NCBI GenBank assembly: GCA_035765175.1 | Contig: DASTYD010000149.1 | Location: 1-43,496, forward strand | From: Gaiellaceae bacterium | GTDB lineage: Bacteria > Actinomycetota > Thermoleophilia > Gaiellales > Gaiellaceae | DNA: 43,496 nt | Direction: 5' to 3' | In this document: positions 35,419 to 42,627 of the stretch, one piece after another | Position numbering within the stretch: position 1 is the first letter of the stretch | Layout: each line of letters starts with the position of its first letter | Program-made: the position numbers and the translations under genes | Notes under the pieces: generated by a model | What the model was told of the DNA's origin: nothing | Database searches by the model: none | Seen by the model: only the letters and a program-made list of their open reading frames with translations

Positions 35419-35991
35419 TTAAGAACCGGCACCGAAGGTAGCAAGCACGGCCTCCGCGACGACCCGCAGGGGCCGCCCGGAGACCTGGCTCGCCTTCCGG
35501 AGGCGGGCGAACGCCTCCTCTTCGGTGAGGTTCTCCTTTTCCATCAGCAGGCCCTTGGCCCGCTCGATGACCTTCCGGGCGGCGAGAGCGTCCGACAGCG
35601 ACTCGGCTTCCTCGCGCAGCGCCGCGAGCTCCTCGTGTCGCGCCCGGGCCGTCTGGATCGCCGGGAGGAGGTCCTGCTCGCGGAACGGCTTCACGAGGTA
35701 GCCGAAGACGCCTGCCTCGATCGCGCGCGAGACGAGCTCGTCCTGGCCGTAGGCGGTGAGCATGACGATCGGGATCGGCCGCTCGTCGAGGATCCGCCGG
35801 GCAGCCTCGATCCCGTCGAGGCGCGGCATCTTCACGTCGAGCACCGCCACCTCCGGCTGGGTCTCGCGCGCCAGCTCGACAGCTTCCTCGCCGTCGCGGG
35901 CCTCGGCGCAGACCTCGAACCCCGCCCGCTCGAGCAGGGTTCGCAGGTCGAGCCTGATGATCGTCTCGTCCTCGGCGATGAGGACTCTCAC
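35419..35991 (-). CDS. pdtaR: Response regulator with ANTAR RNA-binding output domain (PdtaR-like)
   Basis: Receiver domain MRVLIAEDE...AVLDVKMPRLDG...YLVKP. ANTAR domain ARKVIERAKGLLMEKENLTEEEAFARLRKASQVSGRPLRVVAEAVL. Confidence 0.9.
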   Translation of the reverse strand: MRVLIAEDETIIRLDLRTLLERAGFEVCAEARDGEEAVELARETQPEVAVLDVKMPRLDGIEAARRILDERPIPIVMLTAYGQDELVSRAIEAGVFGYLVKPFREQDLLPAIQTARARHEELAALREEAESLSDALAARKVIERAKGLLMEKENLTEEEAFARLRKASQVSGRPLRVVAEAVLATFGAGS

Positions 35992-37013: not shown

Positions 37014-37310
37014 CCCGCGCTTGGTCCACCAGCGCATCACGTCGGCGGCCATCCGGCCGGCCCGAACGGAAGGGTCGGATTCTGCGAGGCGCCGAGTCTC
37101 CTCGAGGTCGGTGCGGTACAGGCAGAAGCCGCGGAGCGTGTCGTCGGGCTGGTCGGAAAACGGGCCGGCGAGGACGAGGTGGCCCTGCTCGGTCATCGCG
37201 GCGAGATGCGCGAGATGTTGCTCCTGCAGCCGATCGAGCTCCTCGTCGGAGAACTCGGCCGCTCTCGGGCCGCGCTTCAGCAGTACGAAGCTGTAGCTGT
37301 CGAGCTCCAT
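36999..37310 (-). CDS. YciI-like (DGPF) small protein
   Basis: 103 aa. FVLLKRGP...EELDRLQEQHLAHLAAMTEQGHLVLAGPF is the YciI pattern. The ATG overlaps the pdtaS stop (TGATG). Its 3' end overlaps the HxlR gene convergently by 15 nt. Confidence 0.7.
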   Translation of the reverse strand: MELDSYSFVLLKRGPRAAEFSDEELDRLQEQHLAHLAAMTEQGHLVLAGPFSDQPDDTLRGFCLYRTDLEETRRLAESDPSVRAGRMAADVMRWWTKRGSLPF

Positions 37311-38713
37311 CAGGCCGGAAAGACGACCTCGGCCCGCAGGCCGCCGTTCGAGTGGAGGTCGAGCGTTCCACGCAGCTCGTCCCGCACGAGCGCACGGACG
37401 ATCGAGAGCCCCGTGCCGTCAGCATCGTCGACGATCCCGCTCCCGTCGTCGGCGATCGCGAGCACCACCTCTCCGTCGCGCCGCGCCAGCTCGACGAGGA
37501 CCGTATTGCCGCCGTGTTCGAGCGCGTTCTGCAGGAGCTCGCTGAAGACGAGGGCAAGCGCCGTCGCCCTGCCGCCGGGAAGCGAAACCGGAGTCAGGTG
37601 CGCGTCGACGTGCTTGTCGGCGCCGAGGCCCTGGACGAGCATCGCGCGCAAGCGGTCGAGCAAGTCGCCGAGATCGACCGCCTCGTCGCGGCGTTCCGTG
37701 AGCACCTCGTGCACCGCGGCGATCGCGAGGATGCGGTTCACCGAGTCCTCGAGCGCCTTGCGCGGGTCGACTCCTTCCGAGCGCGCCTGGAGGCGAAGCA
37801 GCGACGCGACTGTCTGAAGGTTGTTCTTCACGCGGTGGTGGATCTCTTGAGCGAGGACGCCGCGCATGACCGCGCGCCCATGCTCGAGCGCAACCGCCGC
37901 GTGGTGCGCGATCGAGGTCAGGAGCGCCCGTTCCTGCTCGGTGAACGGCGTGTCCCGGTCGCAGACGAGCTCGCCGATCGCGCGGCGCTTCCAACGGAGC
38001 GGGAGCCGGATCGCGTGCTCGCCGGCGCGGCCCTCCGGCCAGGCGATGTTCCCGTCCTCGAGGACGAGGGCCGCGCCGGTTGCTCCCACCGCATCCATCG
38101 TCGTCTTCACGATCGCCTCCAGCGACTCCTCGAGGTAGAGCGAGTCCGAGACCGCTTCCGAGATCTTCGCGAGCGCCTCGAGCTCCGAAACGCGGGCCTG
38201 CGCGTCGGCGTAGAGCTTCGCGTGCTCGATCGTCTGGGCGACCTGCGCCGCGATCGCGACGAGGAGATCGATCTCGGCCTCCGAGAACTTCCGCGGGTCC
38301 TCGGTCCGCACGTTGAGCGCGCCGGCCAGCTTCTCGCGCGCGAGGATCGGGACGGCGAGGATCGATTCGTACTGGTCTTCCGGCAGATTTGGGAACGCCT
38401 TGAAGCGCTCGTCGAGGTGCGCCTGCTCCGCGATCATGATCGGCGCGCGGTCGGCCGCGGCAGTGCCGGTGATCCCCTCGCCGGGCCGCATGCGCGGTGT
38501 GCGCGTCATCTCCTCGACCCGCGTGCCGTGGGTCGCGCGAAGCACGAGCTCGTCGGCTTGGTCGTCGTACAGGTAGACGAAGCACGCGTCGGCGTCGAGC
38601 GCGTCCGCGACCTTGCTGGCGACCAGCGCGAGCACCTCCTCGAGGTCGAGCGTCGAGTTGACCGCCGCACTCGTCTCGGTCAGCAGGCGGAGATGGCGCG
38701 CCGAGACATCCAC
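37310..38713 (-). CDS. pdtaS: Cytoplasmic GAF-sensor histidine kinase (PdtaS-like; HisKA_2 type)
   Basis: No transmembrane segment. N-terminal GAF domain (LDLEEVLALVASKVADAL...GITGTAA...ILAVPIL), a second sensor domain, H-box EIHHRVKNNLQTVASLLRLQ, N-box ELLQNALEHG and G1 box DDGSG. Confidence 0.88.
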   Translation of the reverse strand: MDVSARHLRLLTETSAAVNSTLDLEEVLALVASKVADALDADACFVYLYDDQADELVLRATHGTRVEEMTRTPRMRPGEGITGTAAADRAPIMIAEQAHLDERFKAFPNLPEDQYESILAVPILAREKLAGALNVRTEDPRKFSEAEIDLLVAIAAQVAQTIEHAKLYADAQARVSELEALAKISEAVSDSLYLEESLEAIVKTTMDAVGATGAALVLEDGNIAWPEGRAGEHAIRLPLRWKRRAIGELVCDRDTPFTEQERALLTSIAHHAAVALEHGRAVMRGVLAQEIHHRVKNNLQTVASLLRLQARSEGVDPRKALEDSVNRILAIAAVHEVLTERRDEAVDLGDLLDRLRAMLVQGLGADKHVDAHLTPVSLPGGRATALALVFSELLQNALEHGGNTVLVELARRDGEVVLAIADDGSGIVDDADGTGLSIVRALVRDELRGTLDLHSNGGLRAEVVFPA

Positions 38714-39920: not shown

Positions 39921-39930
39921 GTGAGGGGCC
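39907..39930. terminator. Hairpin at the convergent junction of the small ORF and glnA
   Basis: ggcc-a-cctcac / tag / gtgagg-ggcc forms a 10-bp stem with one bulged A and a 3-nt loop. It sits immediately after the glnA stop (39930-39932). There is no U-tract in either direction. Confidence 0.45.
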
Positions 39931-41297
39931 TATAGGACGCTCAGGTAGCGCTCCATCTCCCAGTCGGTGAGCTGAACCCTGTAGTCGTCCCACTCCTTGC
40001 GCTTGAGCTCGACGTAGCGGTCGAAGATGTGCGGGCCCAGGGCCTTCTTGGCCAGCTCCGAATCGGCGAGCTCGTCGATCGCCTCGCCGAGGGTCTCCGG
40101 TAGGGAGACGATCCCGCGCTCCTTCCGCTGCTCGGCGGTCAGGTGGTAGAGGTTCGTCTCCATCGGGTCGGGCAGCTCGTAGCCCTTCTCGATTCCCTCG
40201 AGCCCCGCGTGCAAGAGCGCGGCGAACGTCAGGTACGGGTTGCACGCCGGGTCCGGACACCGGATCTCGGCGCGCGTCGCCTGCTCGTTGCCGGGCTTGT
40301 AGAGCGGGATCCTGATCAGCGCGGAGCGGTTCCGGCGCGACCAGGCGACGTACACCGGCGCCTCGTACCCGGGCACGAGCCGCTTGTACGAGTTCACCCA
40401 CTGCGCGAAGACCGCGGAGATCTCCCGCGCATGCCGTAGCTGCCCGGCGATGAACGCCTTGCCGGCCTCCGACAGATGCCACTCGTCGTCGGGGTCGAAG
40501 AAGCTGTTGCGGCCTTCGTTGAAGAGCGACTGGTGCGTGTGCATGCCGGACCCGTTCTCGCCGAAGATCGGCTTCGGCATGAACGTCGCGTGGTAGCCGG
40601 CCTTCTTCGCGATCTCCTTCACGATCAGGCGGTACGTCAGCGTGTGGTCGGCCATCTCGAGCGCGGGCGCGAAGCGCATGTCGATCTCGTGCTGTGACGG
40701 GCCTACCTCGTGGTGCACGTACTCGACGGGGATCCCCATCTGCTCGAGGGCGCGGACGGTTTCCTGGCGCAGCTCGCTGGCGGCGTCCAGTGTCGTCATC
40801 GCGAAGTAGCCGCCTTCGTCGAGCGTCTCGGTGCCCTTGTCGTCCTCGAAGAGAAAGTACTCCAGCTCGGGTCCGACGTTGAAGGTGTCGAAGCCCATCT
40901 CCTGGCAGCGCTCCAGTGCACGTCGGAGCACGTAGCGGGGATCGCCCTCATACGGCTTCCCGTCCGGAGTGACGACGTCGCAGATCATCCGCCCGACCTT
41001 CGTCTCGCCCTCCTTCCAGGGCATCATCCGGTAGGTGCCCGGGTCGGGGATGGCGACCATGTCCGACTCCTCGATTGCGTTGAAGCCGGTGATCGACGAG
41101 CCGTCGAAGCCCATCCCGTCGTCGAGCGCGCCCTCGATCTCGCTCGGCGTCACCGCGAAGCTCTTCAGGTGCCCTTCGAGATCGGTGAACCAGAGGAGCA
41201 GGAACTCGACTCCGTCGGCCTTCATCTTCTCGAGCGCGTCCGTGCGGGCTTCCTCGCTCGAGGTGGCCCGGTTCTTCGACTCGACCTGCTGCGCCAT
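39930..41297 (-). CDS. glnA: Glutamine synthetase type I (I-alpha-like)
   Basis: 455 aa. GFDGSSI and KPIFGENGSGMHTHQSL motifs. The C-terminal segment NLYHLTAEQRKERGIVSLP resembles the Bacillus-type I-alpha enzyme rather than the NLYDLP adenylylation loop. AAGGAGG lies 7 nt upstream of the ATG. Confidence 0.93.
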   Translation of the reverse strand: MAQQVESKNRATSSEEARTDALEKMKADGVEFLLLWFTDLEGHLKSFAVTPSEIEGALDDGMGFDGSSITGFNAIEESDMVAIPDPGTYRMMPWKEGETKVGRMICDVVTPDGKPYEGDPRYVLRRALERCQEMGFDTFNVGPELEYFLFEDDKGTETLDEGGYFAMTTLDAASELRQETVRALEQMGIPVEYVHHEVGPSQHEIDMRFAPALEMADHTLTYRLIVKEIAKKAGYHATFMPKPIFGENGSGMHTHQSLFNEGRNSFFDPDDEWHLSEAGKAFIAGQLRHAREISAVFAQWVNSYKRLVPGYEAPVYVAWSRRNRSALIRIPLYKPGNEQATRAEIRCPDPACNPYLTFAALLHAGLEGIEKGYELPDPMETNLYHLTAEQRKERGIVSLPETLGEAIDELADSELAKKALGPHIFDRYVELKRKEWDDYRVQLTDWEMERYLSVL

Positions 41298-41311
41298 GTG
41301 TACGCCTCCTT

Positions 41312-41347
41312 AAACACGAAAAGCCCCGGGCCGACTTAGCCCGAGGC
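41312..41347 (-). terminator. Intrinsic terminator between the MFS gene and glnA, inside the glnA leader
   Basis: On the minus-strand RNA, GCCUCGGGC-UAAGUCG-GCCCGGGGC forms 9 bp including one G-U pair. It is followed by UUUUCGUGUUU. The U-tract ends 14 nt before the glnA AUG, directly abutting the SD. Confidence 0.7.
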
Positions 41348-41382
41348 CTCATTGCCTCAACACAACGGCGGGGAGAGTATCA
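41343..41382 (-). promoter_or_regulatory. Candidate glnA leader elements: an extended -10-like box and a hexaloop hairpin that competes with the terminator
   Basis: TGATACTCT (41382-41374) fits TGnTAnnnT and includes the MFS stop codon. GAGGC-AAUGAG-GCCUC (41358-41343) is a 5-bp stem with a hexaloop. Its 3' arm is the first 5 nt of the terminator 5' arm. Confidence 0.4.
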
Positions 41383-42627
41383 CGCCTCGGCTGCCAGCTC
41401 CTCCAGCTCGGGCTCGCGGCCCTGGTGCGCGATCGCCCGGCCGTAGAGCCACAGCGCCGGAGCGATGACGAGGGCGCCCGCCGTGAGGGCGGCGCGGATT
41501 CCCCAGACGTTGCCAATCACTCCCAGCACCGGCCCGCCGCCGGCTTGGCCGATGGCATTTGCCTGTCCCGAGATCGAGAGCACTGTTGCACGCACGGTCG
41601 AATCCCTGATCTGCTCGTTCAGCCAGATCGTGTAGAGCGGCCCGGCAAGGTTGCGTGCCATGAAGACACCGAGTAGGGCGGCGATCGCGAGCCAGGTGAG
41701 CCCGGTCAGTGCGAACACGAGCATCGCTACCATCTCCGCGACCGTCAGCGCGAAGAGGGTGCCCGTCACGACCTTTCGGCCACCCCGCTCGAAGCGCTTG
41801 ATGAGCCAGCCGGTTGCGAAGAACCCGAGCACCATCCCGACGAGCCAGAAGCTCCCGAACCAGACGACCGGGTCGAGGTCGCCGACGCTTGGCAAACCCA
41901 CGTCGCGCAGGAAGTGCGCTTCCTTCAGGCGATCGAAGGCCTCACTCGACATGCCCATGAAGAAGTCGACGCCGACAAGCAGCAGGATCACCGGAGCGGC
42001 CCACGCATAGCGAAAGCCGCTCACCGCCGTCGTGCGCAGCTCGGACACGGGCGATCCGCGCTCGGACTTGGGCCGTCGCCGGAAGCCGGTCTCTGGCATG
42101 AAGAGGATCGAGAGGAGCCCGGCGAGGACGGCGACGGCACCGCCGGCGATCACGCCCGCGCGGAGCGAGTAGACCCCGATCGCGACCTGGAGCAGCAGCC
42201 CGGCCACGGAGCCGATGTAGGCGATGCGAGAGCCCCTGAGGAAGACCCGGCTCACCTTGTCGACCCCCACCTCGTCGCTGATCCAGGCTTCTTCCGCTCC
42301 GCTCGTGAACGTGTAAGCGAGGCCCCAGAGCGCCCAGAGCGCGATGATCGCGACCGGGGACGACACGAGGGCGACGGCCATCCAGGCGACGCCCATCCCC
42401 AGGTAGCCGACGATCAGAGAGAGCCGGCGGCTGTACGTGTCGGCGACGACTCCGGTCGGCACTTCGAACAGGAAGACGGCAGCCTCCATCGCGGTCCCCA
42501 TGAGCACGAGCTCGAGCGGCGAGAGGTTCAGCTCCTGCACGAGGTACACCGCCATGACGACCCACGTCGGCATGGACAGGAGCACCTGGAGGACGTAGTA
42601 GAGGCGGGTGGCGTCCGCGCGTCTCAC
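41380..42627 (-). CDS. Major facilitator superfamily transporter
   Basis: 415 aa with about 12 hydrophobic helices split by a charged central loop (FRRRPKSERGS). The GTG start overlaps the methyltransferase stop (GTGA). Confidence 0.8.
   Translation of the reverse strand: MRRADATRLYYVLQVLLSMPTWVVMAVYLVQELNLSPLELVLMGTAMEAAVFLFEVPTGVVADTYSRRLSLIVGYLGMGVAWMAVALVSSPVAIIALWALWGLAYTFTSGAEEAWISDEVGVDKVSRVFLRGSRIAYIGSVAGLLLQVAIGVYSLRAGVIAGGAVAVLAGLLSILFMPETGFRRRPKSERGSPVSELRTTAVSGFRYAWAAPVILLLVGVDFFMGMSSEAFDRLKEAHFLRDVGLPSVGDLDPVVWFGSFWLVGMVLGFFATGWLIKRFERGGRKVVTGTLFALTVAEMVAMLVFALTGLTWLAIAALLGVFMARNLAGPLYTIWLNEQIRDSTVRATVLSISGQANAIGQAGGGPVLGVIGNVWGIRAALTAGALVIAPALWLYGRAIAHQGREPELEELAAEA

Follow-up and report, generated by a model that had tools for sequence, protein, structure and literature searches.

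A putative transcription attenuator before glnA of a Gaiellaceae bacterium, a one-hairpin member of a proposed family of nitrogen-gene leaders in Gaiellales

In a 43,496-nt stretch of DNA from a Gaiellaceae bacterium (contig DASTYD010000149.1, assembly GCA_035765175.1; its whole length is called the window here), the leader of the type I glutamine synthetase (GS) gene glnA is very probably a regulated transcription attenuator. Factor-dependent antitermination by a PdtaR-like ANTAR protein is the form of regulation that we consider probable, the leader belonging to a nitrogen-assimilation regulon of the Gaiellales—abundant, almost uncultured soil actinobacteria—in which glnA would carry a one-hairpin variant. 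As judged by comparison of sequences, the glnA leader is the one-hairpin member of a Gaiellales family of leaders that head three types of GS, a GNAT acetyltransferase, amtB and P-II genes, and all the others have two hairpins. The features of the window on which this reading draws are:

41380-42627, minus strand: MFS gene
41382-41380, minus strand: TGA stop codon of the MFS gene
41379-41374, minus strand: -10-like box TACTCT, adjoining the MFS stop; transcription start predicted at ~41365-41368
41358-41343, minus strand: hairpin P2, candidate antiterminator, with 5' arm GAGGC (41358-41354), hexaloop AAUGAG (41353-41348) and 3' arm GCCUC (41347-41343)
41347-41323, minus strand: intrinsic terminator, with 5' arm GCCUCGGGCU (41347-41338), loop AAGUC (41337-41333) and 3' arm GGCCCGGGGC (41332-41323)
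41322-41312, minus strand: interrupted U-tract UUUUCGUGUUU, read from the sequence
41311-41305, minus strand: Shine-Dalgarno (SD) sequence AAGGAGG, read from the sequence, 7 nt from the AUG
41297, minus strand: AUG start codon of glnA
39930-41297, minus strand: glnA, type I GS of 455 aa, downstream of the leader (Pfam Gln-synt_N and Gln-synt_C; TIGR00653 at 542 bits, above its cut-off)
37310-38713, minus strand: cytoplasmic GAF-HisKA_2-HATPase histidine kinase of PdtaS-like architecture, candidate sensor (Pfam)
35419-35991, minus strand: PdtaR-like response regulator with ANTAR output, candidate antiterminator protein (Pfam Response_reg and ANTAR, PF03861)

The MFS stop and the glnA AUG are 82 nt apart in the window, and the terminator starts 33 nt past that stop. 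The first-pass annotation of this DNA had proposed that a hairpin, GAGGC-AAUGAG-GCCUC, has its 3' arm inside the 5' arm of a GC-rich terminator between MFS and glnA, and both elements were found where it had placed them on the minus strand, the terminator as a 10-bp stem that was also detected by a scan and that covaries in relatives. The two folds share 5 nt, GCCUC (41347-41343), which is at once the 3' arm of P2 and the start of the terminator 5' arm. The loop AAUGAG does carry the A at position 1 (A1) and the G at position 4 (G4) to which attention had been drawn, exactly 14 nt separate the end of the U-tract from the AUG, and only the SD fits between the terminator and the AUG, leaving, as had been argued, no room there for a promoter. 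An SD was also present at the matching position in the aligned relatives.

Folded alone, P2 reached -8.7 kcal/mol, a value equalled by 5 of 200 shuffled sequences (-3.6 +/- 2.0), and the terminator state reached -26.2 kcal/mol, which none of 200 shuffles matched. The terminator fold is thus far more stable than P2, and the RNA, left alone, should terminate. A terminator scan that took in 600 nt, and returned 2 sites where 0.3 were expected, found a 13-pair stem at 41350-41320 made up of 10 bp and an A/G-U extension; the GC-rich 10-bp stem leads directly into UUUU, the U-tract being broken after these 4 U, as befits an intrinsic terminator. In one soil run (X44) a variant was seen that has, on the plus strand, T for C at 41335 and C for A at 41338, in the terminator loop and the innermost stem pair, and these differences are natural variation limited to the variable part of the terminator.

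With GlnA as query, 80 loci at 75-96% protein identity were retrieved, labelled nearly all as Gaiellaceae, Gaiellales or Thermoleophilia. The module of P2 and terminator stood before glnA in 65 of the 80 genomes, 2 loci were cut off inside glnA, and 13 had a short unrelated leader. This conservation is the strongest evidence against a chance arrangement. The upstream gene was an MFS gene in only some of the loci, and the sequence 5' of the -10 box showed no conservation. Within P2, the stem AGGC/GCCU was invariant in all 64 aligned leaders (the outer pair was mismatched in 18 of them), and the loop had a fixed length of six in 66 of 66, with G4 in all 66, A2 in 65, a purine at position 1 (A in 19, G in 47) and free choice at positions 5-6. 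The terminator does not include the 5' arm AGGC or loop positions 2 and 4, and their being fixed, or nearly so, between free flanks is the pattern of a site of sequence-specific recognition. The four inner pairs of P2 never vary, and covariation is consequently silent on the hairpin. The terminator of the same 64 leaders was paired in 98% of cells, with 21 double-change cells (4.6 in shuffles, none of 500 of which reached 21) and compensatory changes at 4 of 10 pairs, and its loop ranged from 3 to 35 nt across genomes.

The 13 genomes that have no attenuator before glnA (L011, L046, L048, L051, L053, L059, L063, L065, L067, L069, L071, L073 and L075; ~110 nt upstream of glnA) have a TAGGCT/TACGCT box followed by a ~25-nt 5' UTR and a small hairpin leading into the SD (in L053, CGUC-GAGC-GACG-AGGAGG), and several of them retain a two-hairpin leader, of the kind described below, before GSII or a second type I GS. 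One locus, L039 (JBLMYA010000117.1), is labelled Verrucomicrobiota and yet has a Gaiellales-type glnA, both classes of leader and the kinase/regulator pair; its bin assignment looks wrong.

What decides the interpretation toward ANTAR targets is a second class of leader, in which a further hairpin, P2 and a terminator precede nitrogen genes. A pattern search of the loci located a second copy of P2 and terminator in ~40 of them, on the opposite strand and 2-7 kb upstream of glnA. These leaders add a hairpin, P1, 5' of P2, with a GC stem of 5-10 bp and a linker of 0-5 nt; the P1 hexaloop had G4 in 22 of 22 cases and a purine at position 1 (G in 20 of 22), and P2 of this class had A1 in 22 of 30. 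P1 covaries, with compensatory changes at 6 of 10 pairs and a score reached by none of 500 shuffles, as does the terminator of this class, and -35 and -10 boxes are recognisable 5' of P1. Behind these leaders lie a second type I GS (TIGR00653, 625 bits), a GlnII-like GS and an ArsN1/PAT-like GNAT, to which metagenome contigs found with the P2 pattern added AmtB and P-II genes (about half of the metagenome matches were chance occurrences in coding sequence without a terminator, and these were discarded).

Several other features of the two-hairpin leaders and their genes were observed. A conserved CGTCCGTCCG-like box lies between the -35 (TTGACx/TTGCGT) and the -10 of their promoters (L001:428-600(-), L005:3954-4000(-), L166, L195) and suggests an extra DNA-binding regulator at initiation. 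About 60% of them have a conserved UGGUCCGA box after the U-tract and before the SD (e.g., L004:486-520(-)), which also occurs in inserts of the glnA leaders of L036, L039 and L052; GUCC within it is a repeat of the terminator's inner 3' arm, and alternative pairing in the read-through RNA would be possible. The GNAT acetyltransferase found under such leaders (L052:2532-3008(-), L045:1770-2255(-), L007:3026-3622(-), L155) is nearest to the enzymes that confer resistance to arsinothricin and phosphinothricin by detoxifying these GS inhibitors, with scores below their cut-offs, and detoxification of GS inhibitors may be co-regulated with GS. The P-II-family proteins directly behind two-hairpin leaders (L099:651-986(-), L128, L168, L175) are of 111-117 aa, begin MVKVEAVVV.ERVETVIDAVEEETGHVGVTV... 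and are divergent from standard GlnB/GlnK, with a Pfam P-II score of 62 bits.

A covariance model built on the two-hairpin class had a sole match in the window, at 41291-41381 (36.5 bits, E 6e-8), the next one reaching only 12.5 bits, and there were no further leader copies in the window; if the arrangement is as in L001, the closest relative, the nearest copy with two hairpins is ~4.7 kb past the window end. Across 1.1 Mb of loci the same model matched only the two classes of leader, the two-hairpin ones at 50-99 bits and those of glnA at 25-48 bits. A P1-like hexaloop hairpin (at least 5 bp, at most 6 nt upstream of P2) was present in 80% of the two-hairpin class as against 8% of shuffles, and in 7.6% of glnA leaders as against 6.8%. 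The space for P1 is taken in glnA leaders by the -10 box, and they have one of the two stem-loops by which ANTAR RNAs are recognised. The first-pass annotation had cautioned that it could find only one good hexaloop hairpin, and this has turned out to be a general property of glnA leaders.

Two candidates for an additional structure were rejected. One was a concealed P1 near the -10 box of glnA leaders, where hexaloop hairpins and stems of any kind adjacent to P2 were no more frequent than in shuffles; one-off stems appeared in L027 and L131. The other was a helix of the 5'-end ..CGU.. with the ACGNN loop, in the role of anti-antiterminator or pseudoknot, for which swapped loops matched equally well (15 observed, 12.9 +/- 2.6 expected). 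Searches against Rfam gave no match at the gathering score across the window, and none that was relevant at E up to 10 in the glnA leader or in a two-hairpin leader.

That glnA has a promoter of its own, with an extended -10, had also been proposed, and here the comparison upheld the promoter box and not its extension. A TAnnnT box stood 9-15 nt before P2 in 66 of 66 leaders (TAGACT in 25; in the window TACTCT, with a spacer of 15 nt), and as it is fixed while the upstream sequence and gene differ, it supports an own promoter, whereas the 'extended' TG was not conserved. The start predicted from this box, a few nt before P2, would give a leader of ~70 nt in the window. In soil metatranscriptome contigs glnA was heavily covered, as an abundant mRNA, and the MFS region had zero depth in the same runs. 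One near-identical RNA contig (X25) runs over 41224-41354 and takes in the SD, the terminator and most of P2, and in several RNA contigs of relatives the terminator and U-tract are continuous with glnA coding sequence; only read-through RNA was seen, the contigs being short and of a kind that does not capture terminated leaders of ~50 nt. Runs of undefined kind, probably DNA, do extend into the MFS gene. The RNA data are consistent with the existence of read-through RNA, and nothing in them favours co-transcription with MFS, with the low depth and possible carry-over of DNA making them less than decisive.

These observations bear on a different account of the leader, in which there is nothing but a terminator for the MFS gene, P2 folds by chance, and glnA is either co-transcribed or transcribed independently. 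The terminator does lie 33 nt from the MFS stop, and a scan with the sigma-70 consensus found no promoter. The module, however, also occurs where the upstream gene is unrelated or distant, and before five other nitrogen gene families with -35 and -10 boxes of their own, and the MFS gene had no depth in RNA runs that covered glnA. This account is contradicted by the comparative data, and we regard it as very improbable.

A second account, that the leader is a decayed or simplified one, is also unlikely, if less starkly so. Here the terminator would be a constant partial brake that may also serve the MFS gene, the hairpin would mainly stabilise the mRNA, and glnA would be controlled elsewhere. 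P1 is indeed missing, 13 related genomes manage without the attenuator, and the abundance of glnA mRNA in soil metatranscriptomes would suit such a brake. The U-tract pattern, UUUUYGYRUUU, is kept in glnA leaders, and it is interrupted and shorter, its first U run averaging 3.8 as compared with 5.3 in two-hairpin leaders (p = 1e-6), which suggests a leaky terminator; we infer that the shorter run would fit a leakier brake on a housekeeping glnA. A stabiliser or spacer, on the other hand, would leave AGGC and loop positions 2 and 4 free to change, and these are invariant or nearly so in 66 genomes whose GlnA goes down to 75% protein identity; nor does such a role account for a module that stays with glnA whatever the upstream gene.

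The ANTAR response regulator and nearby kinase noted in the first pass were both confirmed by Pfam. Residues 2-188 of the regulator align to residues 15-201 of Rv1626 (PDB 1S8N; 174 bits, E 2e-50), a homology over its full length, and its receiver, coiled-coil linker and ANTAR domain make it a regulator of PdtaR type; the window has no other gene with an ANTAR domain, and each locus likewise has just one. The kinase sits between the regulator and glnA, and in nearly all sufficiently long loci it lies 0.4-7 kb downstream of glnA, with the order glnA, kinase, regulator kept in nearly all of these, including those without a glnA attenuator. Since the linkage persists where the attenuator is absent, synteny is weak evidence, suggestive rather than discriminating. 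The best matches of the N-terminal GAF domain of the kinase were the GAFs of PtsP/EI-Ntr (PDB 3CI6, 3TRC; E 1e-21 to 1e-20), with NifA also among them, and its PDB matches included no structure of a PdtaS sensor domain. The GAF of EI-Ntr binds glutamine (PMC4848567), and by analogy the likeness suggests a nitrogen signal for the kinase.

With these components, the favoured mechanism of factor-dependent antitermination can be set out. Transcription would begin a few nt 3' of the TACTCT box, and P2, a 5-bp hexaloop hairpin, would form first; the terminator, which comes later and is more stable (-26 vs -9 kcal/mol), would then displace P2 and take GCCUC, and the default outcome would be a transcript that ends in the U-tract, 14 nt before the AUG. 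A factor on P2, reading R1, A2 and G4 of the loop together with the AGGC/GCCU stem, would hold GCCUC back, and with this segment sequestered there would be only a 5-bp remnant, GGGCU/GGCCC, 5 nt off the U-tract, and the polymerase would enter glnA. The likeliest factor would be the PdtaR-like regulator encoded nearby, acting as a phosphorylated dimer and receiving its input from the GAF kinase, which would in turn report nitrogen status. The start site, the binder, the signal and the direction of regulation are the parts of this model that we infer; the folds with their conservation and covariation, the module common to the nitrogen genes, the lack of P1 before glnA, and the identity of the proteins and their linkage to glnA are observed. 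Each element of the earlier reading of the leader is supported as far as analysis of sequence reaches.

The attenuator might instead be regulated by something other than an ANTAR protein—another RNA-binding protein such as a P-II-like one or GS, a small RNA, or a metabolite with a direct effect on the hairpins—and this we consider rather unlikely, though the least so of the alternatives. The binding of an ANTAR protein is a prediction from sequence, its gene stays linked to glnA where the attenuator is absent, and the regulon includes the unusual P-II-like genes of 111-117 aa. A1, which was important for NasR and EutV, is not conserved here, 71% of the glnA leaders having G at position 1, as do 20 of 22 P1 loops. 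The single hairpin of the glnA leader counts against the ANTAR reading as well, the second being thought necessary for ANTAR dimers; for EutV both hairpins and their spacing are needed for good binding and induction (PMC3369931). Mycobacterial PdtaR, moreover, is described as working at the level of translation or through sequestration and not as an antiterminator (PMC8131098, PMC8164766). Against another factor stands the combination of adjacent hexaloop hairpins, an invariant G4, a second hairpin that overlaps a terminator, and nitrogen genes, which is a specific signature of ANTAR targets (PMC3369931), with an ANTAR regulator encoded beside the regulon. A metabolite in particular is disfavoured by hairpins too small, and too devoid of internal loops or junctions, for a ligand pocket, and by the lack of any Rfam riboswitch match.

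A broader proposal, which goes beyond the ANTAR mechanism and which we put forward tentatively, is that in this deep lineage of actinobacteria the PdtaS/PdtaR-type system is at root a nitrogen-status system, in which the GAF may sense glutamine or 2-oxoglutarate, the regulator antiterminates every ammonium-assimilation operon, and one hexaloop hairpin close to the 5' end is enough for the housekeeping glnA. If this were true, leaders with one and two hairpins would make an affinity hierarchy, the two-hairpin rule for ANTAR targets would be relaxed, and there would be a concrete and testable idea for the long-unclear physiological role of PdtaS/PdtaR.

The Gaiellales would, on the ANTAR reading, gain a coherent post-initiation nitrogen regulon comprising three GS, AmtB, P-II and an acetyltransferase. 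This regulon is new in that no description of it was found in Rfam or in the survey of actinobacterial ANTAR systems, which makes no mention of the Gaiellales lineage (PMC8164766). It would link an orthologue of PdtaR with antitermination of the classical kind at nitrogen genes, at a time when the mycobacterial literature still calls the mode of PdtaR action unclear, and the one-hairpin glnA leader, kept in 66 genomes, offers a natural test of the two-hairpin ANTAR rule. Such leaders can be annotated in metagenomes by means of the covariance model and the consensus.

Among known systems, the glutamine riboswitch of cyanobacteria (the glnA RNA motif) is likewise a cis-acting RNA before nitrogen-assimilation genes, but it has a three-stem junction, an E-loop and a pseudoknot, in place of which the Gaiellales leaders, with no Rfam match, set simple hairpins against a terminator. 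The mycobacterial PdtaS/PdtaR system and the actinobacterial ANTAR RNAs (Mehta et al. 2020/2021; Buglino et al. 2021) share with the present case a regulator homologous over its full length, a cytoplasmic GAF kinase and GC-rich RNA targets; they differ in that the hairpin here competes with a classical terminator, and in the kinase GAF, which here resembles those of EI-Ntr and NifA.

Among the closest known systems are also the leaders governed by EutV (eutP, Enterococcus faecalis), NasR (nasF, Klebsiella) and AmiR (amiE, Pseudomonas). By definition, ANTAR targets have a pair of hexaloop hairpins carrying A1/G4, of which the second overlaps a terminator (PMC3369931, PMC3369936, PMC8164766), and as in those leaders the glnA leader has a short hexaloop hairpin, on a stem of 5 bp where at least 3 bp are expected and with A1 and G4 in the window, whose 3' arm is the 5' part of the terminator, a target in nitrogen metabolism, an ANTAR response regulator encoded nearby and, as proposed here from sequence, read-through that would depend on a protein. 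It departs from them in its single hairpin, near the predicted 5' end of the transcript; their full layout of P1, linker and P2 is found here in the sister leaders of relatives. In the Gaiellales family loop position 1 is mostly G, the hairpin stem is invariant in sequence, and the 0-5 nt linker of the two-hairpin relatives falls at the lower limit of the published 2-25 nt (PMC8164766) or under it. Nitrogen genes, GS among them, had already been predicted as ANTAR targets in other phyla (PMC3369931, PMC3369936), and the predicted regulons of Desulfotomaculum acetoxidans (Ramesh et al. 2012) and of GnfR in Geobacter (Ueki and Lovley 2010) likewise have several leaders with the motif before P-II, ammonium transporter and GS genes in one genome. 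What sets the present family apart from these is its occurrence in Gaiellales of the Thermoleophilia, its regulator of PdtaR type, and its inclusion of three GS isoenzymes together with an acetyltransferase of the kind that acts on GS inhibitors.
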